64,000 nt of DNA from Escherichia coli (GTDB lineage Bacteria > Pseudomonadota > Gammaproteobacteria > Enterobacterales > Enterobacteriaceae), in assembly GCF_002854065.1 (NCBI RefSeq), contig NZ_CP024147.1. One strand, written 5' to 3'. Below are positions 6,641 to 38,275 of the stretch, in pieces. A program made the translations under genes and the position numbers. Position 1 is the first letter of the stretch; the number at the start of each line of letters is the position of its first letter. The notes beneath the pieces are model-generated. The model did no database searches, had not been told where the DNA came from, and worked only from the letters and a program-made list of their open reading frames with translations.

Positions 6641-6925
6641 TTATTGCGTAACCAGACGGCGTAATCGCGACACATCCACCGTTTTTTCAGCCTCTGCCAG
6701 ACTCCAGGCGTTTTGCAGATTCAGCCACATTTGCGGCGAACTGCCGATCACCACGGAAAGTTTAATTGCCATTTCTGGCGTCAAAGCTGCTTTTCCGGTC
6801 AGCAATCGGCTTGCCGTTGAGGGCGCAATTTCCATTGCTCTGGCAAACTCGCGCAGGCTGACATTAAGTTCGTCCAGTGATTCCTGAATAATGTCCCCCG
6901 GGCGGGGATGATTGGCCATTTTCAT
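6641..6925 (-). CDS. yddM: HigA-like HTH (XRE-family) antitoxin-type regulator
   Basis: 94-aa ORF; HTH region [34 protein letters not shown]. Start ATG overlaps the stop of the upstream toxin ORF (ATGA). Confidence 0.8.
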
Positions 6926-7203
6926 CAGTGATAGTCCTCGTAATCCAGTATGTATGCATCGCCATTGACGAATTCAAATGTGATTCGCCAGTTGCCCGAG
7001 ACAGATATCGCCCAAATTCCATCGCGATCGCCGCTTAACGGGTGTAGTCGGTAACCGGGCATATCGATATCAGCAAGACAGCTTGCTGCATCAATCACAG
7101 CGAGTCGGTGGCGTAATCGTTTGACTTGCGTCGGTATAACGCCGGAGGTTTTGCCGAGAAGAAACAAGTCACGCAATCCCTTGTGTCTGAAATTCATTAT
7201 CAT
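6925..7203 (-). CDS. HigB-family (RelE/ParE superfamily) mRNA-interferase toxin, intact 92-aa ORF
   Basis: [22 protein letters not shown]...[40 protein letters not shown] matches my recollection of HigB (plasmid Rts1 killer protein) along its whole length, including the C-terminal GDAYIL-YEDYH. AAGGA ribosome-binding site upstream; toxin-first arrangement typical of higBA. Confidence 0.75.
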
Positions 7204-11617: not shown

Positions 11618-11672
11618 AGCGTTGCAGGATGACGCGTCAGGCGCGTGAATGCCTGATGCGTTGTTAGCATCT

Positions 11673-12599
11673 CTACAGCGCCCGCCAGCACCGGAGCTCA
11701 CGTCCGTCCTCCCTTATTGCTAATGATTGCCGGACTTCGCATCCGCTGGTTGCAAGGGGGCAACGTTCGCGGAAAAAACAGCCTTGCGGCAACGTGCGGT
11801 TTCCCGGCAGTTCCGTTTTACGTAATGCCCATTCTTCCTCCAGCGGTTTATCAATGGCGGGGAGGGAGTCCAGCAATAATCGGGTGTACGGATGTGCCGG
11901 AGCCGTCAGTACCTGTTGCGCGTCGCCCAGTTCTACAATCTGCCCGAGATACATCACCGCTACCCGATCGCTCATATGACGAATCACCGAGACATTGTGT
12001 GAGATCAGCACATAGGTCAGCCTGCGATTTACCTGTAGCGTTATCAGTAAATTGAGGATCTGCGCCTGCACGGAGATATCCAGCGCCGAGGTTGGCTCAT
12101 CAAGCACAATCACGTCAGGCTGCGAAGAGAGTGCTCTGGCAATGGCGATGCGTTGCCGCTGCCCGCCGGAGAACGCATGAGGCAGGCGGTCGAGATACTC
12201 CGGACGAATACCCACCTGCACAGCCAGCTCCTCTGCCAACGCTCGCCGCTGTTGTTCACTACTACGCTTAGCTATCCAGAGCGGTTCTGTGATGATGCGC
12301 CACACCGGTAAGCGCGGATTGAGCGAAGAGAGCGGGTCCTGAAACACCATCTGCATAATGCGTTGTGAGCCAGAACGGATGTACTGCCCGTGGCTCGGTT
12401 GCAGCATACCCATTAAAAGCTGTGCGAGGGTGCTTTTGCCGCAGCCTGACTCGCCGACGATCCCTAAGGTTTCACCACGGCGGATCTGTAAATCAATACC
12501 ATTAATGGCATGAACATGTTCCGTAGTTTTACCAAGCCAGTTTTTACGGGCCGGGAAATTGATATGGACGTCGCGTAACGTTAATAACGTGTCAGACAC
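11673..12599 (-). CDS. ddpF: D,D-dipeptide ABC transporter ATP-binding protein
   Basis: 308 aa; Walker A GESGCGKST and signature LSGGQRQR. Confidence 0.85.
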   Translation of the reverse strand: MSDTLLTLRDVHINFPARKNWLGKTTEHVHAINGIDLQIRRGETLGIVGESGCGKSTLAQLLMGMLQPSHGQYIRSGSQRIMQMVFQDPLSSLNPRLPVWRIITEPLWIAKRSSEQQRRALAEELAVQVGIRPEYLDRLPHAFSGGQRQRIAIARALSSQPDVIVLDEPTSALDISVQAQILNLLITLQVNRRLTYVLISHNVSVIRHMSDRVAVMYLGQIVELGDAQQVLTAPAHPYTRLLLDSLPAIDKPLEEEWALRKTELPGNRTLPQGCFFRERCPLATSGCEVRQSLAIREDGRELRCWRAL

Positions 12600-13578
12600 T
12601 TATGACCTCCTGCTGCGGATACCAACAGGCGCAGCGCTGGTTGTTGTCACCACACGCTGTCAGCGCCGGGACGTTTTCACACTGTGCACCTGCCGCATAG
12701 CAACGATCGCGAAAAGCGCAGCCGTCAGGCAAATGGGTGAGGTTTGGTACCGTCCCTGGAATGGCGGGTAATGGCTGGCGTGGTACTCCATGTTCTGGTG
12801 CGCATTGCAGCAAACCAATGGTATACGGATGCCGGGGATGATGGATAACGTCTGCCGTCACGCCGCTTTCAATTACGCTTCCGGCATACATCACGTAAAC
12901 GCTATCGCACAGTTGCGACACCACGGCCATATCATGGCTGATGAACAGTACCGCAGTTCCACTAGCGCGGGCTTTATGTTTAAGCAAACGCAGTACCTGC
13001 AACTGTACCGTGACGTCCAGCGCCGTAGTCGGTTCGTCGGCAATAATCAATTGCGGCTCGCAGGAGAATGCCAGCGCAATCATTACCCGCTGGCGCATAC
13101 CACCTGAAAGCTCAAACGGATAGCGCGACATAACTTCCACGGCATCCGGGATTTGCATCTCTTCCAGCAGGGCAATCGCTTTAGCTCTGGCTTCCCGACG
13201 ACTTATTGGTTGATGATGGCGGATCACGTCCATCATCTGAAGACCTATTCGACGTGTCGGATTGAGGGCGGTCATCGGTTCCTGAAAGATCATCGCCACT
13301 CGTGCGCCGCGCCACTGACGAAGCTGTTTTTCCCGAGCGTTAAGAACATCGTCTCCCAGCAGTGAAATCTGCCCCCGATGTACGCAATAACTGCCCGTCG
13401 GTAGCAGACGCATAATCAGCATTGCGGTGACTGATTTACCTGAGCCGGATTCTCCCACCAGACCGACAATTTCACCGCGGTTAATCTGCAAGGACACATT
13501 GTTGAGCGCGTGTACATCACCGTTAAAACCGGGGAAACTCAAATGCAGTTGTTGAATGTCCAGAACGGGTTGGGTCAT
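12592..13578 (-). CDS. ddpD: D,D-dipeptide ABC transporter ATP-binding protein
   Basis: 328 aa; Walker A GESGSGKSV, signature LSGGMRQR. Overlaps ddpF start by 8 bp. Confidence 0.85.
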   Translation of the reverse strand: MTQPVLDIQQLHLSFPGFNGDVHALNNVSLQINRGEIVGLVGESGSGKSVTAMLIMRLLPTGSYCVHRGQISLLGDDVLNAREKQLRQWRGARVAMIFQEPMTALNPTRRIGLQMMDVIRHHQPISRREARAKAIALLEEMQIPDAVEVMSRYPFELSGGMRQRVMIALAFSCEPQLIIADEPTTALDVTVQLQVLRLLKHKARASGTAVLFISHDMAVVSQLCDSVYVMYAGSVIESGVTADVIHHPRHPYTIGLLQCAPEHGVPRQPLPAIPGTVPNLTHLPDGCAFRDRCYAAGAQCENVPALTACGDNNQRCACWYPQQEVISV

Positions 13579-14471
13579 GACTGCTTTCCTCCTGCTTTCG
13601 GGTCAAGCAGATCGCGAATACCATCACCAAAGAGATTAAACCCGACGGCGGTAAGCAAAATCGCTGTCCCCGGAAATGCGCAATACCACCACTGATCGAG
13701 TACATAGTTGCGACCATTCGCTACCATCGCGCCCCATTCAGCACTCGGTTGTTGAGCACCCAGGCCAATAAATCCCAACGTGGCGGCCATTAAAATCGCG
13801 CTACCGATATCCAGCGATGCCTGCACGATCAGCGACGGCAGGGAGTTACGTAAAATATGCCAGTTGATCAGATGCCAACGCGACGCGCCAAAGGTTTTCG
13901 CCGCCTGAACATAGGTATACTGGCGTACAACTAATGCTTGCCCCCGCGCCAGGCGCACATAAAAGGGAATTCGCACAATAGCAATCGCCAGCATGGCGTT
14001 AAATAAACTCGGCCCGAGAGCGGCAGCCAGTGCCATTGTCAGTACCAACGAAGGAATCGACAGCATAATGTCCATGATGCGCATGATGATGGCGTCTGCG
14101 CGTCCGCCAAGCACACCGGATAGACATCCGAGTAGCGAACCAATCATACCCGCAATGGCGACCACCACTAATCCGGCGAGAATTGATTGCTGACTGCCGA
14201 CCAGTACGCGGCTGAACAGATCGCGTCCCACTTCATCGGTGCCAAACCAGTGCGCCGCAGAAGGCGGCAAAAGGCGGGCGGTTAAATCAATGGCGTTGGG
14301 ATCATGCGTCGCAAGCCACGGTGAAAAAATCATCATCAATAGCATTAATACAATGATGACTGCGCCGGTCACGGTGAGCGGACTGCCTTTCAGCATCCAT
14401 ACCAGTTTTGCACCGTTAAATCGCGTTTGTTTTTGTGGGCGTACGGCGGACGTTTCCTCGCTTAGCATCAT
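13575..14471 (-). CDS. ddpC: D,D-dipeptide ABC transporter permease
   Basis: 298-aa hydrophobic ORF of the DppC/OppC type; 4-bp overlaps with neighbours. Confidence 0.85.
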   Translation of the reverse strand: MMLSEETSAVRPQKQTRFNGAKLVWMLKGSPLTVTGAVIIVLMLLMMIFSPWLATHDPNAIDLTARLLPPSAAHWFGTDEVGRDLFSRVLVGSQQSILAGLVVVAIAGMIGSLLGCLSGVLGGRADAIIMRIMDIMLSIPSLVLTMALAAALGPSLFNAMLAIAIVRIPFYVRLARGQALVVRQYTYVQAAKTFGASRWHLINWHILRNSLPSLIVQASLDIGSAILMAATLGFIGLGAQQPSAEWGAMVANGRNYVLDQWWYCAFPGTAILLTAVGFNLFGDGIRDLLDPKAGGKQS

Positions 14472-15490
14472 TCACCACCTCCACGTCCGATACGCGGATC
14501 AATCCACAAATAGAGCAAATCCACCACCAGGTTGACCAGCACATAAGCAAATGAAACCACGACGGCAAAGCCCATCACTGCCGGGAAGTCGAGCGCCTGT
14601 ATTGATGTTACTACCCATGCCCCCATTCCGGGCCAGGCAAAAACGGTTTCGGTGAGCACTGCGCCATACAACAAATCGCCCAGCGCCAGACCCAATACGG
14701 TAATCGATGGGATCAACGCATTGGGTAGCGCATAACATAAAACGATATACCAGCCGGGCAAGCCGCTGGCCCGGGCGGTACGAATGTAGTCTTCACTCAA
14801 TTGTTCCAGCATCGCTGAGCGGATCTGGCGAGCGACAATTCCCAGGTGAACGAACGCCAGCGTTAATGCCGGTAAGATGAGATGTTGCAACGCATTGAAG
14901 AAGACTTCACTGTTGCCTTCAAGCAACGCATCGAGCAGATAAAAGCCGGTAACGTGCGTTGGTGGATCCAGCCAGTCATCAAGCCTTCCGCCGCCGGGAA
15001 GTATTTGCAGATGACCATAAAACAGCACAATGACGCCCAGCCCAAGCCAGAACGCAGGTGTGGAGATTCCGGTAATGGCCATTATTCGCACCAGATGATC
15101 CAGCCAGCGATTTCGCCAGACTGCAGAGAGTATGCCCAGCGGGATGCCAATCAAGAGTGCCAGCAGCAGGACACAAAAAGCCAGCTCCAGCGTCGCCGGG
15201 AAAAATATACGCAACTCTTCCAGCACCGGACGCCCGGTACGAATGGATGTCCCCAGGTCACCATGAAACAGATCGCTGACGTAGCGGTAAAACTGTACGT
15301 ACAGTGGCTGGTCCAGCCCCAGTTGCTGGCGAATATTTTCCACGATAGCATCGCTGGCGCGGTCACCTGCCAATAACCGCGCCGGATCGCCGGGGATCAG
15401 ATGCGAGATAATAAACGTAATCACACAGACCCCCGCCATCACGAGCACCAGCCCCCAACAGCGTTGGCGTAAAATACTCCAGAAGGTCAC
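14468..15490 (-). CDS. ddpB: D,D-dipeptide ABC transporter permease
   Basis: 340-aa hydrophobic ORF of the DppB/OppB type. Confidence 0.85.
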   Translation of the reverse strand: MTFWSILRQRCWGLVLVMAGVCVITFIISHLIPGDPARLLAGDRASDAIVENIRQQLGLDQPLYVQFYRYVSDLFHGDLGTSIRTGRPVLEELRIFFPATLELAFCVLLLALLIGIPLGILSAVWRNRWLDHLVRIMAITGISTPAFWLGLGVIVLFYGHLQILPGGGRLDDWLDPPTHVTGFYLLDALLEGNSEVFFNALQHLILPALTLAFVHLGIVARQIRSAMLEQLSEDYIRTARASGLPGWYIVLCYALPNALIPSITVLGLALGDLLYGAVLTETVFAWPGMGAWVVTSIQALDFPAVMGFAVVVSFAYVLVNLVVDLLYLWIDPRIGRGGGE

Positions 15491-15491
15491 G

Positions 15492-17042
15492 TTATTTACT
15501 CATGGTATTGATATTGAAGACCTGTTCCAGCATGGGATTGAACACAAAGCCTTTCACCTCTTTGTTCATCGCCAGTTGGTAGTTTTTCTGGAACAGGTAC
15601 ACATAAGCAGCGTCATCAATGACGATTTTCTGTGCCTGCTGGTAGTTCCGGGTACGCTGCGTCTGGTCGGTGGTCGCGAGCGCATTGCGCAGTAACTTAT
15701 CAACCTCACTGTTTTCATAGAACGAGCGGTTACCCGGCAGACCTTTTTTGTCGGACTCAAACCAGTAATTCATAAACATATACGGGTCGGCAAAATCCGG
15801 ACTCCAGTTGCCAATCGCAATGTCGTAATCACCTTTACCCACTCTGTCGCGCATGGTGGCGTTCGCCAGCTTTTCCAGCTTCACATTGATGCCCAGCTTG
15901 TTGAGACTGGATTGTGTCGCTAGAGCAATAGGCTCCCAGTTCGGATCATTATCAGAATAGAGAAACGTCAGGCTGGTGGGTTTGCTCTTCACTTTATCCC
16001 ATTCGGCTTTGGCTTTCGTTTCGTCATGGTTGTATTGCATTGCCGTCGCATCGTAGCCCCACATGCCTTCCGGAATCGGGCCGCGCATTTGTTTTCCGTT
16101 ACCACTCAGAATGCCGTTAACCATGCCCTGATAATCGGTAGACCAGGAAATGGCCCGCCGCAGCTCCGCCTGATTAAGTGGCGCTTTGCTGTTATTCAGA
16201 TACAGATAGGTGACGCGCAGTGACGGATACTCTGCCACATTGACTTTATTTTCCTACTTCAGGGCGTTGAGTTGATCCACCGGCAGCGCATCGGCAATGT
16301 CAATGTCGCCACGGGAGAGCTGCAGGCGACGGGAGGCACTTTCACCGATAATTTTTACCGATACTCGCTTAAAGTTCGGTTTATTGCCGGGGTAATGCGG
16401 ATTTGGCACCAGAACTAATTGCTGACCTTTTTGCCAGCTTTTCAGCATAAATGGTCCGGAACCGGCGGTATTTTGCGCGAGGAAGCCGCGGGCATCATCC
16501 GCCGCATGTTCCTTTAACACCGCCGGATTGATAATGGATGCACCGTCATTCGCCAGCGTGTAGAGGAACGGTGCGAATGGTTGGCTAAGGGTAAACTTCA
16601 CCGTATGTTCGTCGGGAGCATCAATCTTTAAATCTTTGGGAAATGCTTCTGCTGGCCCCTGGCCGATTTTTAGTAGCCGCTCAAAAGAAAGTTTTACTGC
16701 TTCGGCAGTGACAGGTGTGCCATCGGCAAATTTAGCATTATCTTTCAGGGTGAACGTCCACTCTTTTTGATCGTCAGACGCTTTCCAGCTACTTGCCAGA
16801 TCGCCTTCAACGTCGGTTGAGCCTTTATCACCGTCCGTTTTGTACTGAACCAGTCGCTGATAAGACGGGTAGGTCACCGTCCAGTCGTTATTATCTATTG
16901 TTACCGCCGGGTCGAGGGTTTGTGGATCGGCGGCCTTACCAATCACCAGCATATCTTTCGGTACGGCGGCGTGCGCAACCGGGAAAGTTGTGGCAAGGAC
17001 GAGCGCGAGCAATGTGGGACGAAACGATATCGATCTCTTCAT
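15492..17042 (-). pseudogene. ddpA: D,D-dipeptide periplasmic binding protein gene interrupted by a single in-frame TAG (codon 263 of 516)
   Basis: Track ORFs 16254..17180 and 15492..16238 are in the same frame, separated only by the TAG at 16254..16256 (…LDQLNALK * ENKVNVAEYPSLRV…). Signal peptide MKRSISFRPTLLALVLATTFPVAHA at the start; SBP family 5. Confidence 0.8.
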
Positions 17043-17055
17043 GACAGTTTCCTGA

Positions 17056-17637
17056 TTAACTGACGTGCTGTGTGCCAGGGGATATAAAACAAGAGAATTG
17101 ATCAGCGAGCAGTGGGTAACTCGCTGCCTGGGGTAATTCGAAGTGCCACCATTCGCTGGAGATACCGACAAAACCGCCACCAGTCATAATCGCATTCAGC
17201 AACAGCCGATTGCGCTGAGCGGCGGGCGGGACGGAAGGATGGTAAGCATGGGAGCGCTCGTGCATTTCATCGAACCCTGCGCCCATATCGAGGATGTTCC
17301 CGTGCTCATCACGAAGCGTCAGGTCGATCGCCGTGCCACGGCTGTGATTAGAACCGACCGTCACATCAACAACATATTGCGGGTCTGGGCAGGCTTGCCA
17401 CAACATCGCCTGCGCTTGTTGTGGGCGATACGCATCGTAAATCACCAGTTGTAAGCCTGAGAGCTGGGCGATACTGATACTTTTCGCCAGCGCGGTAATC
17501 GCATCCTTGTGTAACAGACAACGCGCTTGCTGATAAATAGCTTTACCTGTGATGTTATCAGCGCAGGCGTATTTCAATTCGATCTCCAGATCAGGGAAGA
17601 TTACGGCTAAATCAACCAGTTCGGTGGTATCCGACAT
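17056..17637 (-). CDS. ddpX: D-Ala-D-Ala dipeptidase (VanX homolog)
   Basis: 193-aa ORF with zinc-dipeptidase motifs (SNHSRGTAIDLTL, EWWHFE). Confidence 0.85.
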   Translation of the reverse strand: MSDTTELVDLAVIFPDLEIELKYACADNITGKAIYQQARCLLHKDAITALAKSISIAQLSGLQLVIYDAYRPQQAQAMLWQACPDPQYVVDVTVGSNHSRGTAIDLTLRDEHGNILDMGAGFDEMHERSHAYHPSVPPAAQRNRLLLNAIMTGGGFVGISSEWWHFELPQAASYPLLADQFSCFISPGTQHVS

Positions 17638-17680
17638 AAACGGTTCCTGTATAAGACAAAAATTGCTGCGCTTTCCGCTT

Positions 17681-17697
17681 ATGCAGATCTCATGCCA
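17681..17697 (-). promoter_or_regulatory. Sigma-54-type promoter (TGGCAT-N6-TGCAT) upstream of ddpX
   Basis: Minus-strand sequence tggcatgagatctgcat has GG and GC at the canonical -24/-12 spacing, about 45 bp upstream of the ddpX ATG. Fits the known nitrogen (NtrC) control of the ddp operon. Confidence 0.45.
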
Positions 17698-17894
17698 TGC
17701 CGGGATAAGCGCCAGAATGCTGGCTTAAAGTTATATTTTTTAACTTTTGATCAACATTTGTGCAGCGTAGTGCAGTTTTGGTGCAAGAGGGGAAGTTAAG
17801 GAAGGAATCTCCCGGAATCGTAGCTGAAATCACAGTATTTAAGTGACAGTGTCACGTTAAATGAAAACCCGCGAGTGCGGGCGAGAGGAATTTG

Positions 17895-20294
17895 TCAGAT
17901 TTTCAGCGGTAACACGCTGCTCATCCAGCCTGGAATTTCTTCGGCGGGCAGGGGGCGGGAAAAGAAATATCCCTGAATAACGCGACAGTGGATCTTGCGT
18001 AGCATCTCAAATTGCTCTTTGGTTTCGACGCCTTCCGCCACGACGGTTAAATTGAGGCTTTGCCCAATGCTGGTAATGGCTTCAAGTAAGGCAAGGATGC
18101 GTTTTTCCGTCAGACAACGATCGACAAAACTTTTGTCAATTTTGATTTCCGTTACCGGAAGACTGACTAAGCGGGATAATCCGGAAAAGCCCGTGCCAAA
18201 ATCATCTACCGATAAACCCACGCCCATATCACGCAGGATCTGAATGCGCTTAAAGATTTCGGTATCGTGTTCCATCATCATGCTTTCCGTGATTTCCACC
18301 GTCAGCTGGTGGCCGTCAATACCCCAGGCTTGCATTGCATCAGACACCTGATTAGGCAGTTGATTACTGCGAAAGTGCAGCGCCGACAAGTTCACGGATA
18401 ACGCCGGGATATGAATATTCTGGCTACGCCATTCTGCTAACTGACGGCAAGCTTCCGCGATGACCCTGCGCCCAATATTTTCGATTTCACCAATCTCTTC
18501 TGCGAGAGGAATAAACCGTGAAGGGGGCACATGACCATGCTGGGGATCGTGCCAGCGAGCAAGGGCTTCGATGCCGTACAGTTCACCCGTTTCTGCGAAG
18601 ATTTGCGGCTGGTAAACCAGTTTCAGTTGGTTATTGCTAATCGCTTCTTTCAGCGCTGCGCCTAAAACCAAACGCTCTTTTACCATTTCGTTCATCGCCG
18701 GGCTGAAGAACTGCCAGCCGTTACCGCCATTCTTGCGAATATAATCCATTGCATTGTGAGCAGTGGAGAGCAGGTAATCGCGGTTTTTACCCACGTCGTA
18801 GCTGATGCCAATACTCAAGGTAAGCGGGAAGGGTTTATCGTCAATCATTATCGGCTTGCTGACCACATTCCGTAGCTCATCGGCGATTTGGGTAATGTTA
18901 CTGACGTCGTTTTCCAGGCTCACGAGGACAAACTGCGTACCTTCGATACGACAGAGATACTGATCCGGTTTGAGTTTTTCACGAAAGCGATTGACCACTT
19001 CCAGCAATGCCTGATCGGCCCACGCATAGCCAAGGCTATCAATCACATCCTGAATATGGTCAACACCGATGAGATACACCACCGGAGAGACGGCTTTGTC
19101 GACCAGGTCATCGAGGTAATTGTGCAGGTTATTGCGATTTGGCAGACCGGTCATCGGATCAAATTGGATGAGTTGTTCAATATGCTGACGGCTTTTTTCC
19201 TGTTCCAGCGCCAGCGCGGCCATATGCTGGCTGATATCTGCCACGCGTTCGATAAAGGCGCTGGTTTCTGCTCCTGACGAGGTTTTAATTTGCAGGATCC
19301 CCGCAGGCGCACCATCACGCTGACGAATGGTCGCTGACCAGCTTTGCGCATTTTGAACTTCTGCACCGTGCGAAGATGACGCCCAGTGTATCGGCATCCC
19401 GTTGCGCAGTGCGAACAGCGAAACATGCGATTCGTTGAGAACAGATTCGATATTACGACAAATGATTTCCCCCATTTCATGAAATGGCGGGCTGCTGCAC
19501 ATGGCGGCGAGAATATTGCCTTCAAGCTGGCGGATCTGCCGTTCTTCGGTGATATCCGAGAAAGTCATTACCAGGTTCTGCAGATGCGCGAGCACGTCAT
19601 AAACCGGGCTGATAGAGGCTTTAATCCAGATTTTTTCACCGGTGCGCGTCAACAGCAGAAATTCGTCCTGATCGCGGGCGGTTTTCCATAGCAACTGTTG
19701 TAAACGAATGCGGTTATCGGCAGGGAATTCAGGAATGTTCAGGAGTGTATCGGGCTGCATACCGCTGGCTTCGCTAATGCAGTAACCAAACATTTCGGTA
19801 AATGCGCGATTGCACTGCACAATATGGCGTTCCGGATCGAGGACAATCACCGGTCGGTCGAGATGGTCAACGGCAATAATCAATTGTCTGGTCTGTTCTT
19901 TTTGCGCCATTTCTACGCTGGCATCCCGTACCAGCGCCAGGTAATAAACTTTCCCCTCGGCGCTCACTTTCGATAGCGCAAAACGGGTCCAGATTTTACT
20001 GCCGTCTTTTTTCTCCAGCTGCAGCTCCCGACTCATCCCCTCAACACGCGCTTTACCGCCTTCACGGTTATGACGAATGTATTCAGGATGCGCAGGACGC
20101 AAATCCCGCGGAATCAGCATATCAATGTTATTGCCAATGACTTCTTCACGTTTGTATCCCCAGAGCTTCTCTGCGGCGGGGTTGAAAAACATCACTTCAT
20201 CATTTTCGTTAATTAACACCGCACCCATCATATTTTGCTCAAGGGCGGGGAAAAAAATGCCATCGGCGGCATTATCCGCATCGGTTAGCTTCAT
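17895..20294 (-). CDS. dosP: Heme-regulated c-di-GMP phosphodiesterase (PAS-PAS-GGDEF-EAL), oxygen sensor
   Basis: Start taken at MKLTDADNAADGIFF (799 aa); degenerate GGDEF and an EAL domain (EALARW, DDFGTG). Confidence 0.9.
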   Translation of the reverse strand: MKLTDADNAADGIFFPALEQNMMGAVLINENDEVMFFNPAAEKLWGYKREEVIGNNIDMLIPRDLRPAHPEYIRHNREGGKARVEGMSRELQLEKKDGSKIWTRFALSKVSAEGKVYYLALVRDASVEMAQKEQTRQLIIAVDHLDRPVIVLDPERHIVQCNRAFTEMFGYCISEASGMQPDTLLNIPEFPADNRIRLQQLLWKTARDQDEFLLLTRTGEKIWIKASISPVYDVLAHLQNLVMTFSDITEERQIRQLEGNILAAMCSSPPFHEMGEIICRNIESVLNESHVSLFALRNGMPIHWASSSHGAEVQNAQSWSATIRQRDGAPAGILQIKTSSGAETSAFIERVADISQHMAALALEQEKSRQHIEQLIQFDPMTGLPNRNNLHNYLDDLVDKAVSPVVYLIGVDHIQDVIDSLGYAWADQALLEVVNRFREKLKPDQYLCRIEGTQFVLVSLENDVSNITQIADELRNVVSKPIMIDDKPFPLTLSIGISYDVGKNRDYLLSTAHNAMDYIRKNGGNGWQFFSPAMNEMVKERLVLGAALKEAISNNQLKLVYQPQIFAETGELYGIEALARWHDPQHGHVPPSRFIPLAEEIGEIENIGRRVIAEACRQLAEWRSQNIHIPALSVNLSALHFRSNQLPNQVSDAMQAWGIDGHQLTVEITESMMMEHDTEIFKRIQILRDMGVGLSVDDFGTGFSGLSRLVSLPVTEIKIDKSFVDRCLTEKRILALLEAITSIGQSLNLTVVAEGVETKEQFEMLRKIHCRVIQGYFFSRPLPAEEIPGWMSSVLPLKI

Positions 20295-20318
20295 GATTAC
20301 CTCTGCATCCTGGCGCAT

Positions 20319-21701
20319 CTAAAGACTGGCTTTCCAGAGTTCAACACGGTTTCTACCTCGTCTTTTGGCGATATACAGAGCTTCATCGGCTATTTGAATG
20401 AGGCGCTCATAGTCAGGATGACCATTAAACATGGCGGCACCGATGGAAAGTGAGAGGGCAATATCTTCGCCGTTTGCGGCTTTCAGTTTGGTTTTCTCCA
20501 CCCGACTGCGAATACGTTCTGCGGTACGTAACGTTTCGTTTTCAGAAGCTTCAGTCAAAACAATGATAAATTCATCGCCCCCGTAGCGGAAAACATAATC
20601 ACTACTGCGGACGTTGTCATAAAAGGCCTGAGAGACTTTACGCAGAATTTCATCGCCAGTGTTATGGCCCCACGTATCGTTGATCTCTTTGAATTTATCA
20701 ACGTCAATAATCAGCACTGACAGCGGTGTACCGGTCCGGTTGGCATGGGCAATTTCGCGTTTGAAGATAGTCGGCAGGAAACGGCGGTTAAGTAATTTCG
20801 TCAGTACATCCATACCGACTTCGTGGCGCGATACTTCTTCAAACAATTCACGCAGCAAGGTAATAATTTGCGATACGGTATTTCTTATCTGTAATAAAAA
20901 TTTCACCCGCAGACTTCTGTTATTCAAATTCCTGGTGTTACGCATGGTTTGATTGAAAATACCGTCGAAATCCTGAATCAGACGGGAGATATGGCCTACT
21001 TCGGCAATGCCACTAAAATAATGTCGACCTTTATGGTTAAACCACAGGCCAAAATCAGCCTGGCTTAAAGGCAAACTACTGCCTAAATCAGAATCCAGCA
21101 GGATTTTATAGATGATATCTATTTCCCATGAAAGTATTGAGGCTATTTGCCGTTCTTTTTCTTCTTCGGCGTTTTCCAGTAACGAGAAGATACGATAGTT
21201 TTCATCTTCTTTTGAGGCACTACTGTCACTAAAGGTAAACGCGCGGGTCATCACTTCCATAGCGATATCAATACTGTTAATCGAGAAATGGTAGACCTGA
21301 AGTTTTTCTGCGGCAGAATAATCCGAAGAGAAGATTACCGGATAGAGGATCTTTTTCAGCACCCGAAACCCCATCTCGACAATTTCTACCGGAATTCCTA
21401 TGCGGGCATGCACTTCCGCGACGGTATGCTGGATTTGTATTAGCCTTTCGGCATCGTCAACCTGGGCAGAAAGCACGTTAATAATCCAGCGTTCCATCGC
21501 ACTTTTCAACTGCCGCTCAACTTGTTCATTACCCAAGAATTCTTCGGCATGCGGGTCGATGCGGACAATTCGATAAAACTCGATACTCAGATAATGAGCA
21601 TGCGCAACGGCAATTTCCGCGGCTTTAGCACGAATGGGCGGATCTGCCTGCTCGACAAGTCCGGTCCACTCATCTTTCATTCTTTTAAAATACATCTCCA
21701 T
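20319..21701 (-). CDS. dosC: Globin-coupled diguanylate cyclase, oxygen sensor
   Basis: 460-aa ORF; C-terminal GGDEF domain (RYGGDEF) and N-terminal sensor globin. Confidence 0.9.
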   Translation of the reverse strand: MEMYFKRMKDEWTGLVEQADPPIRAKAAEIAVAHAHYLSIEFYRIVRIDPHAEEFLGNEQVERQLKSAMERWIINVLSAQVDDAERLIQIQHTVAEVHARIGIPVEIVEMGFRVLKKILYPVIFSSDYSAAEKLQVYHFSINSIDIAMEVMTRAFTFSDSSASKEDENYRIFSLLENAEEEKERQIASILSWEIDIIYKILLDSDLGSSLPLSQADFGLWFNHKGRHYFSGIAEVGHISRLIQDFDGIFNQTMRNTRNLNNRSLRVKFLLQIRNTVSQIITLLRELFEEVSRHEVGMDVLTKLLNRRFLPTIFKREIAHANRTGTPLSVLIIDVDKFKEINDTWGHNTGDEILRKVSQAFYDNVRSSDYVFRYGGDEFIIVLTEASENETLRTAERIRSRVEKTKLKAANGEDIALSLSIGAAMFNGHPDYERLIQIADEALYIAKRRGRNRVELWKASL

Positions 21702-22077
21702 AATTCACACCCTTATAAGGCTGGGAAATCAGACGGAATCAAAATGAAACGCAACGTGCGAGATCGACTAACTGCACCATATTCTCCTGAAATATGAAGA
21801 TATACTGAAAAGAAATAAGCGACTTAGGACAGTTTCAATCTACGCTACTGTTCTTCAGAAGAGTATAGCCCATCGTAATTATTTTTCGGTGACTGCGAAT
21901 ATCGTATGGTTTTTCATATTCATACATTTTTATTAGGGGGATTATGGCTGTTTAACTAAGTGTGGTTAATTGTGTGGTTAATTTGACTTATGTAAGCATG
22001 ATTACTAGTGGGATATTTCAAGAGGGTAACAAGCCAGTGGGTAAAGCACTGGCTTGTTACAAAGTAAAAATGGGAGT

Positions 22078-23397
22078 TCAACTGCCCCAACGACTTTGCA
22101 GATAGCTGACCGCTTGTTGAGTCTGCGGTTTATTCAGATAGTCCTCACGGAACAAGATGGTGCCGCTAATTTCTGGTACCGCATCGTTAAGATCGAGCTG
22201 CTTTTTCAGTTCCGGTACGCCGCCGTTAATCATCCAGTCTGGCTCTATCTTTGAAGGTTCACCCACTTTATAGAAGGCGATACCGATATACAGGCGGGTC
22301 CTGGTCGGTTTAACGACATCCGCCCACCATTTTGCCAACACGTCATAACGCGCGGCACTCCGTGAGAACGGCCAGTAAATTTGGGGAGCAATGTAATCCA
22401 GCAATCCTTGTTCCACCCATCGACGGGTGTCAGCGTAGGATTCGTCATAGGCTGCCGCGCCTCGGGTATCGGAACCGAGCGGATCGTGTGATCGGTTACG
22501 CCACACGCCTGCCGGGCTAACGCCAAATTCGACTCCCGGCTTAATGCTTTTAATGGTGTGCGATACTTTTGCAATTAACTGCTGAGTATTGTTGCGCCGC
22601 CAGTCTGCTTTTGACGCAAATGCGCCTCCGTATTTGCGGTACGTTTCGTTATCATTTAGCCGTGAACCCGGTGACTCAGTATAGAAATAGTCGTCAAACT
22701 GCACGCCATCTACCGGATAGCGGGAAACCACTTCTGCGACTATTGATGTGATCCAGTCCTGAACCTCAGGGATGCCCGGGTCGAGGACAAAGCGATCGCC
22801 AGACGTTCTGATCCAGTCACGGTGTTGTACATAGACGCTCGCCGGTTGTTGAGACAGAGTGCTATTCAGTTCCCTGATAGTACCGGGTTTCGTATTAACC
22901 GATACGCGATAGGGGTTAAACCAGGCGTGTACTTTCATCCCACGCTTGTGGGCTTCGTCGAGCATGAATTGCAGCGGATCGTAACCCGGATTTTCACCAA
23001 TCTTACCGGTCATAAGATCGGACCACGGCAAAATTTTCGATGGCCACAGGGCGGTACCGTCCGGCTTGACCTGGAAAAAGACCGTGTTTATACCGAGACG
23101 TTGCAGATGATCCAGTTTGTCGATCATCGCCTGTTGTTGTACACGGGCCCGGCTGGTGGGGTTACTAATGTTAACCGAGGAAACCGGTGGCCAGTCGAGG
23201 CGAGACACCGTGGCCAGCCAGATACCACGCATCGGTTGTGACGATTGTTGCGTCGTGGCTGGTGGCTTTGAACCCGCTGGTGGTGTCACCATGGACTCTG
23301 GAGGCGTGCTTTTACAACTACACAGTAAAAGTGCCAGTGCAACCAGTATCGCTGGTCTTCTAATCGTTAATTTCTCGTTTCGGGAGCAGATATCCAT
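22078..23397 (-). CDS. yddW: Outer-membrane lipoprotein, glycoside hydrolase-like (DUF187 / GHL10)
   Basis: 439-aa ORF with lipoprotein signal (LALLLCSC) and a Pro/Thr-rich linker. Confidence 0.85.
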   Translation of the reverse strand: MDICSRNEKLTIRRPAILVALALLLCSCKSTPPESMVTPPAGSKPPATTQQSSQPMRGIWLATVSRLDWPPVSSVNISNPTSRARVQQQAMIDKLDHLQRLGINTVFFQVKPDGTALWPSKILPWSDLMTGKIGENPGYDPLQFMLDEAHKRGMKVHAWFNPYRVSVNTKPGTIRELNSTLSQQPASVYVQHRDWIRTSGDRFVLDPGIPEVQDWITSIVAEVVSRYPVDGVQFDDYFYTESPGSRLNDNETYRKYGGAFASKADWRRNNTQQLIAKVSHTIKSIKPGVEFGVSPAGVWRNRSHDPLGSDTRGAAAYDESYADTRRWVEQGLLDYIAPQIYWPFSRSAARYDVLAKWWADVVKPTRTRLYIGIAFYKVGEPSKIEPDWMINGGVPELKKQLDLNDAVPEISGTILFREDYLNKPQTQQAVSYLQSRWGS

Positions 23398-23469
23398 ATG
23401 TGCTGGTTTCCGGTAAACAGATGTGCGCTCATTCTCGTACTTATCCCGGTTAAGTCAATACGACAGCAA

Positions 23470-23503
23470 GCACGAAAAAGGGAGCGATGAATTATCGCTC
23501 CCT
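23470..23503 (-). terminator. Rho-independent terminator of gadBC
   Basis: Minus strand: aagggagcgat-aattc-atcgctccctt hairpin followed by UUUUCGUGCUU. Confidence 0.5.
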
Positions 23504-23527
23504 TGTCTTATAACCATTCAGACATAG

Positions 23528-25063
23528 TTAGTGTTTCTTGTCATTCATCACAATATAGTGTGGTGAACGTGCACGCGGGTGCAGGAAGAAGTGACCTTTT
23601 GGTGCGTTCTGACTGTTGATTGGCTCCAGAGTGACGCCGGTATTCGCTTTGCCTTTACGATCATGAACAGCATAGAGAATAAAGGGCAGGGCAAGTACCA
23701 CCAGGAAACTAACGACCAGTAATTCAACATACATATCGGTAGAGTCACCCTGGATGTTATCCGGCGGCAGGAAGGAAACAATAAACGCCATAATTGAAGT
23801 CAGCAGACCGACAATTGCCACGACCAGTTTCACCCCTTTACCACCAGGGATATTAAATGTGCGTTTTAAGTCAGGATGTTTAAGAACCAACACAATGTAG
23901 CCAATAAACAGCATGAAATAAGCACACAGATAAATCACCACCGTCAGCGCCAGTGCGATCAGGAAGGACATGTTGTTACCGCCACCGGTATTGGTGAGGA
24001 TGATCAACGCGATAGAAGTAATCACCAGCTGTGAAATGACCAGCGTTACCGGTACGCCATTTTTGTTCATTTTAGCGAATGCCGCTGGCAGCAGGTTTTT
24101 CTGCGCTGTGACATACATCCCGCGAGAAGGACCAACAATCCAGGAGGCGATTTCCGCCAGAACACCCAGCAACAGCAGTGCGGAGATCACGCGAACCGTC
24201 CACTCAATTTCCGGTGCCACATGAGACATCAGAACGGTAAAGGTTTGCATTACCCCTGCGGAGAGGTTGATTTCATTACCCGGAATGACCATCGCAATAG
24301 ACAAACCACCAACAGAGCTTAAGCAGATTGCCGCCACCATCAGCAGTAACATAGCCAACGGATAGTCGCGCCCTGGGTTGCTCATTTCATTGACGTGGGT
24401 TGCGGATGCTTCTACGCCCATATAACTCAAAATGAAGGCAACAAATACAACCAGGGTGCCCACTTTAGAGAAGTCAGGGAAGAAGGTCTTCGAATCCATT
24501 TCGATAGCAACGGGGGCACCGGAGTGCAGATAAATAGCCGCTAATGCAATCAAAATAAATGCAGGTAACAGGATGCCGGCGAAGAAGCCAACTTTAGCAA
24601 TTCGCGCCGTGTATTTCGTGCCACCAAACTGCGTTAATGCCAGCGCCCAAAGAATGATGAGTGCTGCAATAGTTTTGGTAATGGGGTCTTCATTCAGCGC
24701 TGGCCATTTCAGGATGTAGGAGAGTGCCCCTAACACGAAATAGAGCATCGGAATAAAACCAATGGCGATTTGCAGATAGCCAAATGAGATCGCTGCAAAT
24801 CCCCATCTCGGCCCCAGAGTATTTGATACCCAGGCGAAGACACCACCTTCTTCCCAGCCGTCGACGGTGGCCATTTCCGCAGCACAAAGTCCCACGGGAA
24901 TAAACCATAAAATCCCGCCTAATAGCAGGAAGAAGACTAATGAAAAGCCCGATGTTGCGAAGGTAGGGTATTCATAAACAGCCATTACCATCGATGCCGT
25001 TATGGCAAAAAAGCCGAGTAATGTGAGCTGCTTAGCTTTACCTGTCTGTACTGATGTAGCCAT
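23528..25063 (-). CDS. gadC: Glutamate:GABA antiporter (APC family)
   Basis: 511-aa polytopic membrane ORF immediately downstream of gadB. Confidence 0.9.
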
Positions 25064-25162
25064 ATTATCCCCCTAAAACGGTATTCCTGTCGGAACCGCA
25101 CCTGTTTTGTTCTGAAGCGTATTCAGAACAATATTTTCCGTTGCTAATGCCAGTGAACAGAC

Positions 25163-25188
25163 TTTGGAAATTGTCCCGAAACGGGTTC
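25163..25188 (-). terminator. Hairpin between gadB and gadC (partial terminator / attenuator)
   Basis: gtcccgaaac-ggttc-gtttcgggac perfect 10-bp stem. Confidence 0.4.
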
Positions 25189-25218
25189 GTTTCGGGACAC
25201 CGTTACCGTTAAACGTTA

Positions 25219-26619
25219 TCAGGTATGTTTAAAGCTGTTCTGTTGGGCAATACCCTGCAGTTTCGGGTGATCGCTGAGATATTTCAGGGAGGCTTTGTAG
25301 TCTTCCAGCAACAGTTCAGCAAAGTCCATTTCGAAGCCGCGACGACACATAATGCGCATCACCACGATGTCGGTGGCTTCACCGCCGAGAGTGAAGGCCG
25401 GAACCTGCCAGCCGCGCAGACGCAGACGTTCAGAGAGGTCGTACAGGGTGTATCCCGGATCTTCACCCTCTTTCAGTTTGAAGCAAACCGCCGGGATGCC
25501 TTCGTCCGGGCGACCCGTACAGATGAACTCATACGGCCCCAGTTTGGCGATTTCATCCGCCAGATAAGCAGCAACCTGGTAAGAGGCGTTCTGTACTTTG
25601 GTGTAGCCTTCACGACCGAGGCGCAGGAATTCATAGTACTGTGCAATTACCTGACCTGCCGGGCGGGAGAAGTTGATGGCAAAAGTACCAATCTGACCAC
25701 CCAGGTAGTCAACGTTGAACACCAGTTCCTGCGGCAGCGCTTCTTCGTCACGCCAGATAACCCAGCCGCAGCCCAGCGGAGCCAGACCGAATTTATGGCC
25801 TGAAGCACTGATCGATTTCACACGCGGCAGGCGGAAGTCCCAGACGATATCCGGGGCGACGAACGGTGCCAGGAAGCCACCGCTGGCGGCGTCGATGTGC
25901 ATGTCGATGTCGATACCGGTGTCGGCCTGGAATTTATCCAGCGCATCGTGCAGCGGTTGCGGGAACTCATAGTTACCGGTGTAGGTCACGCCGAAAGTCG
26001 GCACCACGCCGATGGTATTTTCGTCGCAGGCTTCAATCATGCGTTTCGGATCCATAAACAACTGACCGGGGCGCATAGGGATCTCACGCAGCTCCACATC
26101 CCAGTAGCGGGCGAATTTATGCCAGCAGATTTGCACCGGACCGCACACCAGGTTTGGTTTATCCGTTGGTTTGCCTGCAGCTTCCATACGCTTGCGCCAA
26201 CGCCATTTCATCGCCATCCCGCCGAGCATACAGGCCTCGGAAGAACCAATGGTGTTGGTGCCAACGGCCTGACCATTTTTCGGCGCAGGCGCATGCCACA
26301 GATCGGCAACCATATTTACGCAACGCAGGTCGATGGCTGCAGATTGCGGATATTCTTCTTTGTCGATCCAGTTTTTGTTAATGGATAAATCCATCAACTT
26401 GTGGACATTTTCGTCGTCCCAGGTCTGGCAGAAAGTGGCCAGGTTCTGACGAGCGTTGCCATCAAGATATAATTCGTCATTGATAATCTGAAATGCGACA
26501 TCGTCGCGCATTTCGTGCAGCGGAAAACGTTTTGATTCTGCGATAGTGGAAATAGACTTCGCACCAAAACGTGAATCGAGTAGTTCCGACCTTAAATCCG
26601 TTACTTGCTTCTTATCCAT
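25219..26619 (-). CDS. gadB: Glutamate decarboxylase beta (PLP-dependent)
   Basis: Start taken at [22 protein letters not shown] (466 aa); PLP-lysine region [15 protein letters not shown]. Confidence 0.9.
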
Positions 26620-26698
26620 TTTAAACTCCTTAAAATGATTGGATCGCATTAAAAAAGTAGGATTTATCGATAAAGTAAGCAAGTGCAAAGGACTCGTG

Positions 26699-26718
26699 TT
26701 TAAATAACAAAATCCTAA
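26699..26718 (-). promoter_or_regulatory. GAD box (GadE binding site) upstream of gadB
   Basis: Minus-strand sequence TTAGGATTTTGTTATTTAAA is an exact match to the 20-bp GAD-box consensus, about 80 bp upstream of the gadB start. Confidence 0.65.
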
Positions 26719-26980
26719 TGTTATTTATCGTGAGATATTGTTGGAATAATATTTTTTCATTAAAAAACAATGCAATAGAGAGCTCTTGGGTGGTGGCAAG
26801 GTGTTCTATGTTGTTATTTTTATGCGCTTTCTGTGCCTCCTAAATTATCACGTAAAAATCAGACCTTAAAATATCACTATTAGTACTTGGTTATTATTTT
26901 GAACGCATTTATAAAATTATTACATAAAAATAGCGAATATTGCTAAAATCCCCGCCAACGATGTGTTGACGGGGCTGTTA

Positions 26981-29776
26981 TTATTTAGGTAATAATACTC
27001 CGGTATAAGTATTTACCGGATGAGAAAGATATTGTTTAACGGCAGTGTTAACATTCTCTACCGTCATTTGTTTCAACAATTGCTCCTGCTCAGTCCATGC
27101 TGCAGGATCGTCATATTGAATAAGACTATTTACAATGGTGTTCGCTAATTGTTGAACGCTACGCTGTTGGATATCGAGGCTGCGCTGAACGTTTTGCTGG
27201 TATTCATTCAGTTCTTGCTCACTGATCCCTTTAGCCAGACGCTTAACCATCACTTCATTCGCTAACGTTAACAGTTCATCATGTCGTTCTGGTTGACAAG
27301 TAAAAGCCAGCAAATGACTGATATCTTTGGCCTGAGGATCAACCGAGAGGCGAGAAGAAACGCTGTATGCTCCAGATGCCTGTTCACGAATATTAACGCG
27401 TAGATCTTTTGCCAGTGCGACGTTAAAAGCATCGAGCGCCATACGCGTCGCCAGATTAACAGGTGTCCGGGAATCATAACGCCTCCACTGTGAAACCTGT
27501 GCTACAGGTTCATTTTGTTCCTTTACAGTAACCGATGCGTTGTCCGTCGCGCGAGTTAATGGTTTACCTGCGGCTAATGGCGAATCAGAGTGTTTGATTG
27601 ATCCTAAGTAACGCGTAATTAACGCCACGAGTTTGTCTTCTGCGACATTACCGACAATGACAAACGTGATATCCGCTGGAGATGAAAACAACTGGCGATC
27701 GGCAGCCAGCGCATCTGCGGCAGTAAACTGTGCAATCTGATTTTCTTGCAGTAATTTCGTGCGGTCATCAGCATAGCGCGTCTCATACATCTGCTGGGCG
27801 AATTTCTCCGCTGGACGCTGGTCGAGCGTTTTCAACGCCTGAATTTGAGCATTTTGTAGCGATGCCCAAATATTGTCGTTAATCGTGCTGTGGGTGATTC
27901 GCTGGTTAATCAAGTGAAAACCAGGTTCAGGGTTATTAGTCCGCGCGCTAACGGAGAGCAACGTATTCATGCCACTGACTTTACTGCTCATGGTTACCGA
28001 GTTTTCCGCACTCCAGCGTTTCAGGCTGGAAGAGGAGAGTTCGCCAACGCCGCTTCCGCTAACTGCTTTATTTGCCAGCGCGATAAGTGATTTTTGCTGC
28101 GCAGGGAAACTTAAATCGCCTTTATTCGATACGGCAATAATTTGTAGCTTTTGCTCTTCACCCGCGGATTTTGCCAGAATAACCTTGGCACCATTGGAAA
28201 GTGTTAATGATGTCAGATTCTCAGCCAGCGTTTCTTTGCTGCTAATTTCCGCCTGTGGGTCAGCGTCTACTGTTAACGATAAATTTCTGCCTGGGAAGAT
28301 GTAAGCCGCCAGCTTTTTGTTAGCGTACTCTTTTTCCAGCGCCAGGATAGCCGCAGGAGACAATGCTTTTTTTGCGGCAAGCTCATTGTTTACCATTTGC
28401 TCCCAAAATGCGTCCTGGTTCTTTCTTAACTGCTGCCATTTTTCCGCCAGACTTTGCACGGTAATTTGCTGCCACAGACGTTTCGAAAGTTGATATGTCT
28501 CTTCCGGCGACAAGAACGGCGTATTATTTAATGAGCTGGATGCCAGGCGACTGGTCAGCATACGTAAATCACGCTCAGCTTGCTGATCAACCGCATTTTT
28601 CAGCCAGGTGAGGCGGGTAGATTTGACATCATCGAGTTCTTCAGCAGAAAAACCATGCTGATCAATGGTTGCCAACTCTGCCATTAATGCATTCGCAGCA
28701 TCCTGCATATTATCGCCTCGTGCATTTACACGGAAAAACAGCGACTGATAATCGGGTGCAATTTTAACGCTGCGCGCAGTGCCGCCAGAAATAGTCTTCA
28801 ACTCACCCGACTGTATACGTTCCTGCAGACGTTGATTGAACAGCTGAACTAACATGCTCCATTCAGCTTGTTCGATAAAGCTTTGCTCATCGTTCACTTG
28901 TACCATTGGCAGGCGATAATAGAGTGCGATGCCGTTCACCCGGTTTTCTTTATCATTAATGATATTAAAGCGCAGGTGGTTTTCGGCTTTTGTCGGCCAG
29001 ACGCGATTTTCAGCTGCTTTGTTAGCCGGAAGCTTACTTAAATTATCCTTTATCAGCGCCAGCGCTTCTTTACTGTCGATATCGCCGACCACGATAAAGG
29101 TCATATTATTTGGTTGATACCAGCGTTGATAAAATTGGCGCAATTGTGCCGGTGTGACCGTGGCGACAGTATCCATCAGGCCGATAGGTTCACGGTCTAA
29201 ATTACGGGTATTTGCCAGCAGGAAAGGGCGGCGCGCCTGAGAGGTGCGCCATTTCGTATCCTGATGGGCACGCCATTCCTCAGTAATTACGCCGCGTTCA
29301 GCGTCTACTTCGAGTTTTTCAAAGGTTGCGGCATTACTCCATTCACTGAAGATTGCCATCACTTGTTGCAGATTTTGTTTCTGCGTAGTTGGCAAACTCA
29401 CCTGATACACCGTTTCGTCATAGCTGGTATAGGCATTAACATCGCGACCAAAACGCAGGCCCATTGACTCAAATGTTTCGATGACTTTATTACCCGGCCA
29501 TGTTTTTGTGCCGTTAAACATCATATGTTCTACAAAATGAGCCACGCCGCGCTCATTGTCTTCTTCCTGCAATGAACCGGTATGAATTTGCAGCCATAAG
29601 TTTACCTGATCCTTTGGATGAGCATGCGGATAAATCATATATCGCAAGCCATTGTCCAGTTGCCCGGTAATTAACTTTTCATCCTGCGGTAAGGCGGCGG
29701 CAATCAGCCGCCCGGGGAGCAACAGAGTTGCCACTAACGTCAGTAAGAAACAGAGGTTTCTCATAATTATCTCCAT
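26981..29776 (-). CDS. pqqL: Periplasmic zinc metallopeptidase, M16 (pitrilysin) family
   Basis: 931-aa ORF with signal peptide and inverted zincin motif HFVEHMMFNG. Confidence 0.85.
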   Translation of the reverse strand: MEIIMRNLCFLLTLVATLLLPGRLIAAALPQDEKLITGQLDNGLRYMIYPHAHPKDQVNLWLQIHTGSLQEEDNERGVAHFVEHMMFNGTKTWPGNKVIETFESMGLRFGRDVNAYTSYDETVYQVSLPTTQKQNLQQVMAIFSEWSNAATFEKLEVDAERGVITEEWRAHQDTKWRTSQARRPFLLANTRNLDREPIGLMDTVATVTPAQLRQFYQRWYQPNNMTFIVVGDIDSKEALALIKDNLSKLPANKAAENRVWPTKAENHLRFNIINDKENRVNGIALYYRLPMVQVNDEQSFIEQAEWSMLVQLFNQRLQERIQSGELKTISGGTARSVKIAPDYQSLFFRVNARGDNMQDAANALMAELATIDQHGFSAEELDDVKSTRLTWLKNAVDQQAERDLRMLTSRLASSSLNNTPFLSPEETYQLSKRLWQQITVQSLAEKWQQLRKNQDAFWEQMVNNELAAKKALSPAAILALEKEYANKKLAAYIFPGRNLSLTVDADPQAEISSKETLAENLTSLTLSNGAKVILAKSAGEEQKLQIIAVSNKGDLSFPAQQKSLIALANKAVSGSGVGELSSSSLKRWSAENSVTMSSKVSGMNTLLSVSARTNNPEPGFHLINQRITHSTINDNIWASLQNAQIQALKTLDQRPAEKFAQQMYETRYADDRTKLLQENQIAQFTAADALAADRQLFSSPADITFVIVGNVAEDKLVALITRYLGSIKHSDSPLAAGKPLTRATDNASVTVKEQNEPVAQVSQWRRYDSRTPVNLATRMALDAFNVALAKDLRVNIREQASGAYSVSSRLSVDPQAKDISHLLAFTCQPERHDELLTLANEVMVKRLAKGISEQELNEYQQNVQRSLDIQQRSVQQLANTIVNSLIQYDDPAAWTEQEQLLKQMTVENVNTAVKQYLSHPVNTYTGVLLPK

Positions 29777-29820
29777 GCGAAAACCGGGCGAATTTACCCG
29801 GTTAAGTAAAATCCGAACTA

Positions 29821-37097: not shown

Positions 37098-37544
37098 AAA
37101 TGTTCCTCTTCTTATTGTACTTAATTCCAAAGTAATTTTACGAAGAGAAATAAGTGGATGTAAGTGAAGTTAGTCACATAAAGAGATAGCAGATTTAGCT
37201 AAAAAAAGGGAAATAACAGTCCATAAAGCGTTGACATTACTTTCTGTTCTACTAAGTAATTTCTCGCCGATAAACAACTAATCTATTGATATTTAATAAA
37301 TTATTGTATTTTACTGACAAAATGCCGAATTGAGATCATAAATAATCATGCAATAGGTTATGCAAATGCATAAATATGTGATGAATGTCACTTATTTATT
37401 TCAATAAATATATCGCCTAAAAACAACGCGGGGCAAGGAATGGCTGCCCCATTTAATTCTTACGTAGCGTGTGTGGTTGACTACCCGTTAGCAAATAATC
37501 AAATAGCTAAAGCACTCATCGTGTTGTCCGGTAATGACTCCAAC

Positions 37545-38048
37545 TTATTGATAGTGTTTTATGTTCAGATAATGCCCGATGACTTTGTCATGCAGCTCCA
37601 CCGATTTTGAGAACGACAGCGACTTCCGTCCCAGCCGTGCCAGGTGCTGCCTCAGATTCAGGTTATGCCGCTCAATTCGCTGCGTATATCGCTTGCTGAT
37701 TACGTGCAGCTTTCCCTTCAGGCGGGATTCATACAGCGGCCAGCCATCCGTCATCCATATCACCACGTCAAAGGGTGACAGCAGGCTCATAAGACGCCCC
37801 AGCGTCGCCATAGTGCGTTCACCGAATACGTGCGCAACAACCGTCTTCCGGAGCCTGTCATACGCGTAAAACAGCCAGCGCTGGCGCGATTTAGCCCCGA
37901 CGTATCCCCACTGTTCGTCCATTTCCGCGCAGACGATGACGTCACTGCCCGGCTGTATGCGCGAGGTTACCGACTGCGGCCTGAGTTTTTTAAATGGCGG
38001 AAAATCGTGTTGAGGCCAACGCCCATAATGCGGGCGGTTGCCCGGCAT
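37545..38048 (-). CDS. insB: IS1 InsB (transposase C-terminal part)
   Basis: 167-aa [19 protein letters not shown]... typical of IS1 InsB. A6C-type frameshift heptamer (minus strand AAAAAAC, plus 37985..37991) sits at the insA/insB junction. Confidence 0.9.
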
Positions 38049-38242: not shown

Positions 38243-38275
38243 TGGAGCACCTCAAAAACACCATCATACACTAAA

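Follow-up and report, generated by a model that had tools for sequence, protein, structure and literature searches.

An amber codon at position 263 of ddpA in an otherwise intact ddpXABCDF operon of Escherichia coli

Background

The closest described counterpart of the locus analysed here is the ddpXABCDF operon of Escherichia coli K-12 (b1488-b1483), which is RpoN/NtrC- and stationary-phase-induced and codes for a D-Ala-D-Ala dipeptidase and a putative D,D-dipeptide ABC permease. A second point of reference is provided by the classical polar amber mutations of the lac and trp operons, which display nonsense polarity, a Rho-dependent effect.

Two public records are nearer still. The complete genome of strain CUWW06 (wastewater, Thailand; NZ_CP182139.1) contains a ddpA (locus ACNHKQ_RS11390) that RefSeq treats as a pseudogene, noting an 'internal stop', while UGBN01000001.1, an NCTC-type PacBio assembly (4.74-Mb; GCA_900449015.1), lists a pair of distinct 'ABC transporter substrate-binding proteins' and not a single pseudogene. 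Both carry the same allele, to which RefSeq and GenBank thus give conflicting annotations, one pseudogene in the former and two proteins in the latter.

The DNA examined here, hereafter the window, is a stretch of 64,000 nucleotides of an E. coli genome (GCF_002854065.1, contig NZ_CP024147.1). Its ddpA allele, already known in public annotation, is a pseudogene of an ordinary kind, made by a single-nucleotide nonsense change in an operon that can be dispensed with, and its sequence gives no hint of a new mechanism or element, or of recoding.

Gene layout of the ddp operon

The features discussed below are listed in the order of transcription, with window coordinates.

17682..17697, minus strand: sigma-54-type -24/-12 element TGGCATgagatCTGCA (TGGCAT-N5-CTGCA), 45 nt upstream of the ddpX ATG
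17056..17637, minus strand: ddpX, D-alanyl-D-alanine dipeptidase (Peptidase_M15), intact, 193 aa, upstream of the mutation
15492..17042, minus strand: ddpA, pseudogene of 516 codons broken at codon 263, for the periplasmic substrate-binding protein of the D,D-dipeptide ABC transporter
16254..17042, minus strand: N-terminal fragment ORF (TAG included), 262 aa, signal peptide and first part of the SBP_bac_5 fold (PF00496 match)
16254..16256, minus strand: amber TAG, ddpA codon 263, from CAG (Gln) by C-to-T at window position 16256 (G-to-A on the plus strand)
15492..16238, minus strand: C-terminal fragment ORF, 248 aa, without signal peptide, possible re-initiation product (PF00496 match)
14468..15490, minus strand: ddpB, permease, intact, 340 aa, GTG start, with the window-private change A107V
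13575..14471, minus strand: ddpC, permease, intact, 298 aa
12592..13578, minus strand: ddpD, ATP-binding subunit, intact, 328 aa
11673..12599, minus strand: ddpF, ATP-binding subunit, intact, 308 aa, with the window-private change V186I

Apart from ddpA, the operon is intact, as the earlier note had stated: ddpX, ddpB, ddpC, ddpD and ddpF are open and of full length, and their coordinates and lengths match the annotated genes of sister genomes and of K-12. The order ddpX-A-B-C-D-F between dosP and osmC, with its coordinates and products, is that of CUWW06, K-12 and two strains with an intact ddpA, XJ34 (bovine, China) and 100416 (human stool, Gambia). Collinearity with CUWW06 and 100416 extends over 34 kb, and the same arrangement is found in K-12 MG1655 (ompC-yddG-fdnGHI, maeA-sra-bdm-osmC, ddpFDCBAX, dosPC-digH-gadCB-pqqL-yddBA). 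The operon thus resembles that of K-12 in the order, lengths and junctions of its genes and in having dosCP upstream and osmC downstream.

The reading frames are as tightly packed as had been described. The ddpB/ddpC and ddpC/ddpD pairs overlap by 4 nt each and ddpD/ddpF by 8 nt, and the ddpA stop is separated from the ddpB start by one base (TAA C GTG).

The sigma-54-like promoter that had been proposed is likewise present upstream of ddpX. Since the window contains no excess of this pattern (17 matches versus 25 expected), the promoter was assigned from the 257-bp dosP-ddpX spacer and not from the motif count. The spacer is 100% identical to that of K-12, in which the ddpX promoter region is an experimentally confirmed RpoN/NtrC target (PMC8743547); its presence here is read from the sequence and its function is known from K-12. 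The Ddp transporter itself is still called putative in the literature (PMC3173086), and likewise in the K-12 annotation.

The amber codon and its origin

Minus-strand translation of window positions 15492..17180 yielded a long frame interrupted by just one stop, beginning MKRSISFRPTLLALVLA and ending NINTMSK before the terminator. The frame agrees with the earlier description of a single in-frame TAG at codon 263 of an otherwise continuous 516-codon ddpA: counting from the ATG at 17042, stops occur at codons 263 and 517, i.e. 516 codons plus the terminator. Codon 263 stands in the context AAG TAG GAA (TAG being window positions 16256, 16255 and 16254), and the plus strand at 16254..16256 reads CTA, ddpA being a minus-strand gene. 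With its stop at codon 263 the gene does not specify the full-length 516 aa DdpA of the ddpXABCDF operon; what is found is one in-frame stop in a frame collinear with intact orthologues, the usual picture of an 'internal stop' pseudogene. The 248-aa ORF on the far side of the stop begins at an in-frame GTG five codons past the TAG, with AGGA 13 nt upstream of this GTG.

The earlier note had proposed a comparison of codon 263 with reference ddpA, and this identifies CAG (Gln) as the ancestral codon. Over 1,551 bases, the window ddpA differs from the XJ34 and 100416 alleles, the two closest intact ones, at position 787 only (T versus C). Codon 263 is CAG in both and also in K-12 (b1487), to which the window ddpA shows 98.2% DNA identity, and the event was therefore a C-to-T transition that turned Gln263 into amber. 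Besides this codon, the window protein departs from K-12 DdpA by N19T, D293E, T352K, I386N and D466N. The sense codon is ancestral, and the stop is derived and lineage-restricted. These comparisons support the view that the TAG is a spontaneous, inherited nonsense mutation (CAG to TAG), that is, that ddpA is a young pseudogene here.

A Dcm hot spot as the source of the mutation finds no support, since the surrounding sequence, AAGCAGGAA, does not fit CCWGG.

Distribution of the allele

The identical TAG was found in seven other assemblies, namely CUWW06, UGBN01000001.1, the draft genome RRNV01000004.1, JAWJUB010000011.1, the SRA-run assemblies SRR8838601 and ERR10376543, and the metagenome ERZ28619825. 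Of these, JAWJUB010000011.1 and ERR10376543 are closest to the window (1-2 SNPs in 6 kb), and UGBN01000001.1, RRNV01000004.1, SRR8838601 and ERZ28619825 show 1-5 substitutions from it in 6.8 kb. CUWW06 has the TAG at the same codon within the collinear 34 kb, across which it differs from the window by 10 SNPs. It has changes of its own (ddpA R122W, a synonymous change at ddpA Q66, and ddpC G29S) and lacks the ddpB A107V and ddpF V186I of the window; these SNPs, the positions of its IS1 elements and a filamentous prophage identify it, on sequence grounds, as a strain distinct from the source of the window.

The two annotated proteins of UGBN01000001.1, STH35767.1 (262 aa) and STH35766.1 (248 aa), are identical to the products of the two window ORFs. 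In an exact-sequence look-up, the former product was present on 55 contigs and the latter on 77. UGBN01000001.1 differs from the window by several 1-nt indels in dosP and at the start of ddpD. The earlier note had held that a shorter annotated protein accompanying the TAG in a reference sequence would speak against a mutation. Such an annotation does exist in this record, yet what it describes in two parts is the same mutant allele, and it gives no reason to take the short form for the normal gene.

To measure the rarity of the allele we used a 55-mer centred on the mutant T as the query; a mismatch at the centre blocks the 28-base megablast seed, so that only carriers of the T are matched. 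One of 5,426 complete E. coli genomes was retrieved, and this was CUWW06. By these searches the ddpA TAG is confined to one small E. coli clade, of which it is a private marker. The members of this clade lie about 10 SNPs per 34 kb apart and were obtained by separate sequencing projects, from samples of different types and in different countries. The TAG arose after the split from strain 100416, the nearest relative that has CAG, which is 17 substitutions away from the window over 33 kb. The earlier suggestion of a recent nonsense mutation stands as regards the mutation, with CAG ancestral and the stop the sole difference from the nearest intact alleles. 'Recent' holds at the level of the clade and not of the isolate, because the rest of the operon is intact, yet the TAG is common to the whole clade. 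It is a clean single-base marker for this clade, of very little importance beyond annotation.

Predicted effect on DdpA and DdpX

With the stop repaired, DdpA can be aligned without a break, over residues ~31-509, to solved homologues that include E. coli DppA (1dpp, 1dpe), MppA, OppA and NikA, which implies that both halves are required for the fold. Residues 279-486 are matched by 3o6p, the structure of a C-terminal domain on its own, and the TAG therefore falls just before the second lobe. Translation would halt after residue 262, leaving a product with the signal peptide and first lobe and without the second lobe and C-terminal segment. Binding proteins of this class cannot enclose their ligand, or dock productively on the permease, with the first lobe alone. 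The 262-residue fragment should accordingly be unable to close round a ligand or hand it over to DdpBCDF, and the 248-aa product, if translated, would stay in the cytoplasm for want of a signal peptide. By analogy with these homologues, DdpA function, and with it DdpA-dependent D,D-dipeptide uptake, has most probably been lost, as the earlier note expected. The dipeptidase DdpX should be unaffected and still be made, since ddpX lies upstream of the TAG and its promoter spacer is identical to that of K-12.

Predicted effect on ddpBCDF

Termination at the TAG leaves 763 nt of mRNA untranslated before ddpB. Because the ddpB GTG lies one base past the ddpA stop, an arrangement typical of translational coupling, ddpB translation is probably coupled to that of ddpA. 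Ribosomes would no longer arrive at the ddpA stop, and expression of ddpBCDF would be lowered through the lost coupling and possibly through Rho-dependent polarity. In these features (an early stop in a gene near the promoter of a compact operon, followed by a long stretch without translation and then by a coupled start) the ddpA allele resembles the polar ambers of lac and trp; for ddpA, polarity is a prediction. Reduced expression of ddpBCDF is thus probable, with a Rho-dependent component possible, and the polarity suggested in the earlier note is a reasonable expectation. Downstream of the TAG the search for Rho-utilisation-like composition found no strong C-rich, G-poor segment (best 78-nt window C 0.32, G 0.18), a result that is uninformative on this point.

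Two considerations could make the polar effect smaller. Re-initiation at the GTG five codons past the TAG could keep ribosomes on the message and soften polarity. In wild-type K-12 under nitrogen limitation, ddpF was induced 2.2-fold and ddpX 104.5-fold (PMC8743547), which suggests that the permease genes are weakly expressed even in an intact operon and that any additional polar effect may be small. The allele would be convenient for studying nonsense polarity and coupling at the ddpA/ddpB junction, or whether DdpBCDF works without DdpA.

Explanations for the amber codon

We regard it as very probable that a C-to-T change arose in the ancestor of a small clade and was inherited, and that DdpA was thereby lost and ddpBCDF probably reduced, the loss being tolerated because the Ddp system is dispensable, and presumably neutral. 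The mutation itself, its ancestral CAG, its inheritance and its rarity are demonstrated; loss of function, polarity and neutrality are inferred. In a megablast search ddpA was found in 4,280 of 5,426 complete E. coli genomes, annotated as ddpA every time, and had no match in the remaining 1,146 (~21%). The gene appears to be accessory, outside the core of the species, and the genomes without a match indicate that the system can be dispensed with. A base-calling error, which the earlier note had offered as one possibility, would have CAG as the true codon of the isolate. A one-base difference from the nearest intact alleles is also what an error looks like. Against it stand the seven other assemblies, from different projects and technologies, that carry the identical TAG, two of which also have the V107 allele of ddpB private to the window; the stop is real in the DNA, and we give an assembly artefact practically no weight. 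Nor did we find support for the proposed amber-suppressor background, for instance a supE-type glnV, in which full-length DdpA would still be made. Such a tRNA would insert Gln, the ancestral residue, and a tRNA scan found no tRNA genes in the window, which is therefore silent about the suppressors of its own genome. CUWW06, however, bears the same TAG, and when its glnV-glnX cluster was located and scanned, both tRNA-Gln(CUG) genes proved to be wild type, with the anticodon CTG. A 55-mer with the supE44-type anticodon change (CTA) at its centre, on which megablast seeds solely with the mutant base, occurred in 158 of 5,426 genomes; among the matches listed (60 of 158) all were laboratory strains of K-12 type or isolates with a genome of this type, and the presence of C600, DH5alpha, DH1 and J53 among them served as a positive control for the query. 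Suppressor tRNAs are in general costly, and rare in natural isolates. With glnV and glnX of CUWW06 read as a proxy, the clade shows no sign of supE, and a suppressed allele seems very unlikely. Programmed read-through of the TAG, giving two isoforms by design, has nothing in its favour beyond an in-frame stop. The stop is missing from 5,425 of the 5,426 complete genomes, the nearest relatives and K-12 having CAG, and E. coli is not known to have pyrrolysine machinery. A stop limited to one small clade is not a conserved one, and its distribution effectively refutes recoding, to which we would assign hardly any probability.

Selection, as a further possibility, might have favoured the loss of DdpA or kept DdpBCDF and DdpX in use with another binding protein. 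The orphan binding proteins MppA and YgiS use OppBCDF in E. coli (PMC3173086). The genes ddpX, ddpB, ddpC and ddpF are open in every clade member examined, as is ddpD except in UGBN01000001.1, where a 1-nt insertion lies near its start. Across six clade members the ddp genes have accumulated about five non-synonymous and about five synonymous changes, a pattern that does not clearly look like free drift. On the other side, 5 of the 10 SNPs between the window and CUWW06 in 34 kb sit in the 6-kb ddp operon, four of them non-synonymous (binomial p = 0.019, post hoc and from tiny counts); this excess hints at relaxed constraint and leans against selection. Intact downstream genes carry no information in so young a clade; open genes are what a young pseudogene predicts and also what continued use of the permease predicts. 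The allele is, moreover, limited to one clade, with no convergent change at the site in the 55-mer search of complete genomes. We therefore think a selective explanation of this kind improbable, and the more specific idea that the clade retains ddpX and ddpBCDF under selection after the loss of DdpA, because another binding protein feeds the permease or because it is of advantage to lose DdpA and keep DdpX, slightly more so. If that idea were true, the TAG would mark a rewired scavenging of D,D-dipeptides and not the first step of operon decay.

Neighbouring variation

Relative to both CUWW06 and 100416, the window has three substitutions of its own in the 34 kb, at 10767 (bdm R25L), 12044 (ddpF V186I) and 15171 (ddpB A107V), all of them non-synonymous. 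V107 of ddpB is common to JAWJUB010000011.1 and ERR10376543, which do not have I186 of ddpF. Codon 119 of ddpX (GGC; 17281..17283) has changed independently twice, to the synonymous GGG in SRR8838601 and to GAC (G119D) in ERZ28619825.

The dosP gene (17895..20294) is intact in the window and codes for 799 aa. It is annotated as 'frameshifted' in XJ34, is split into 279 and 526 aa by a 2-bp deletion at window-equivalent positions 19478-19479 in RRNV01000004.1, and in UGBN01000001.1 has three 1-nt indels that may be PacBio errors.

Two IS1 copies are present in the window (37529..38297 and 52453..53221), each 100% identical to the IS1B of CUWW06 and located at different sites. In CUWW06 the copy is flanked by ydeQ and ydeR, and in 100416 an IS1A lies within yddA; these differing sites suggest that IS1 has moved repeatedly within this close group. 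CUWW06 also contains two tandem filamentous-phage-like elements of ~9.6 kb between a fimbrial chaperone gene and hipA (11670..30785 of the extracted region), encoding a II/X replication protein, a Zot-family protein, a DUF2523 protein and a GspD-like secretin. This element is missing from the window, where the sequence joins directly across the site at ~45653..45668. The part of the window from 45000 to 64000, which includes an ECSE_1600-family autotransporter, a TnAs1-family Tn3-like transposase, a methyl-accepting chemotaxis protein and lsr genes, has its best matches (95% coverage, 98.6% identity) in strains other than CUWW06, and the two genomes therefore differ structurally there. At the other end of the window, the annotation of sister genomes places a higA (yddM)/relE-family toxin-antitoxin pair at 6641..7203, between fdnI and adhP.
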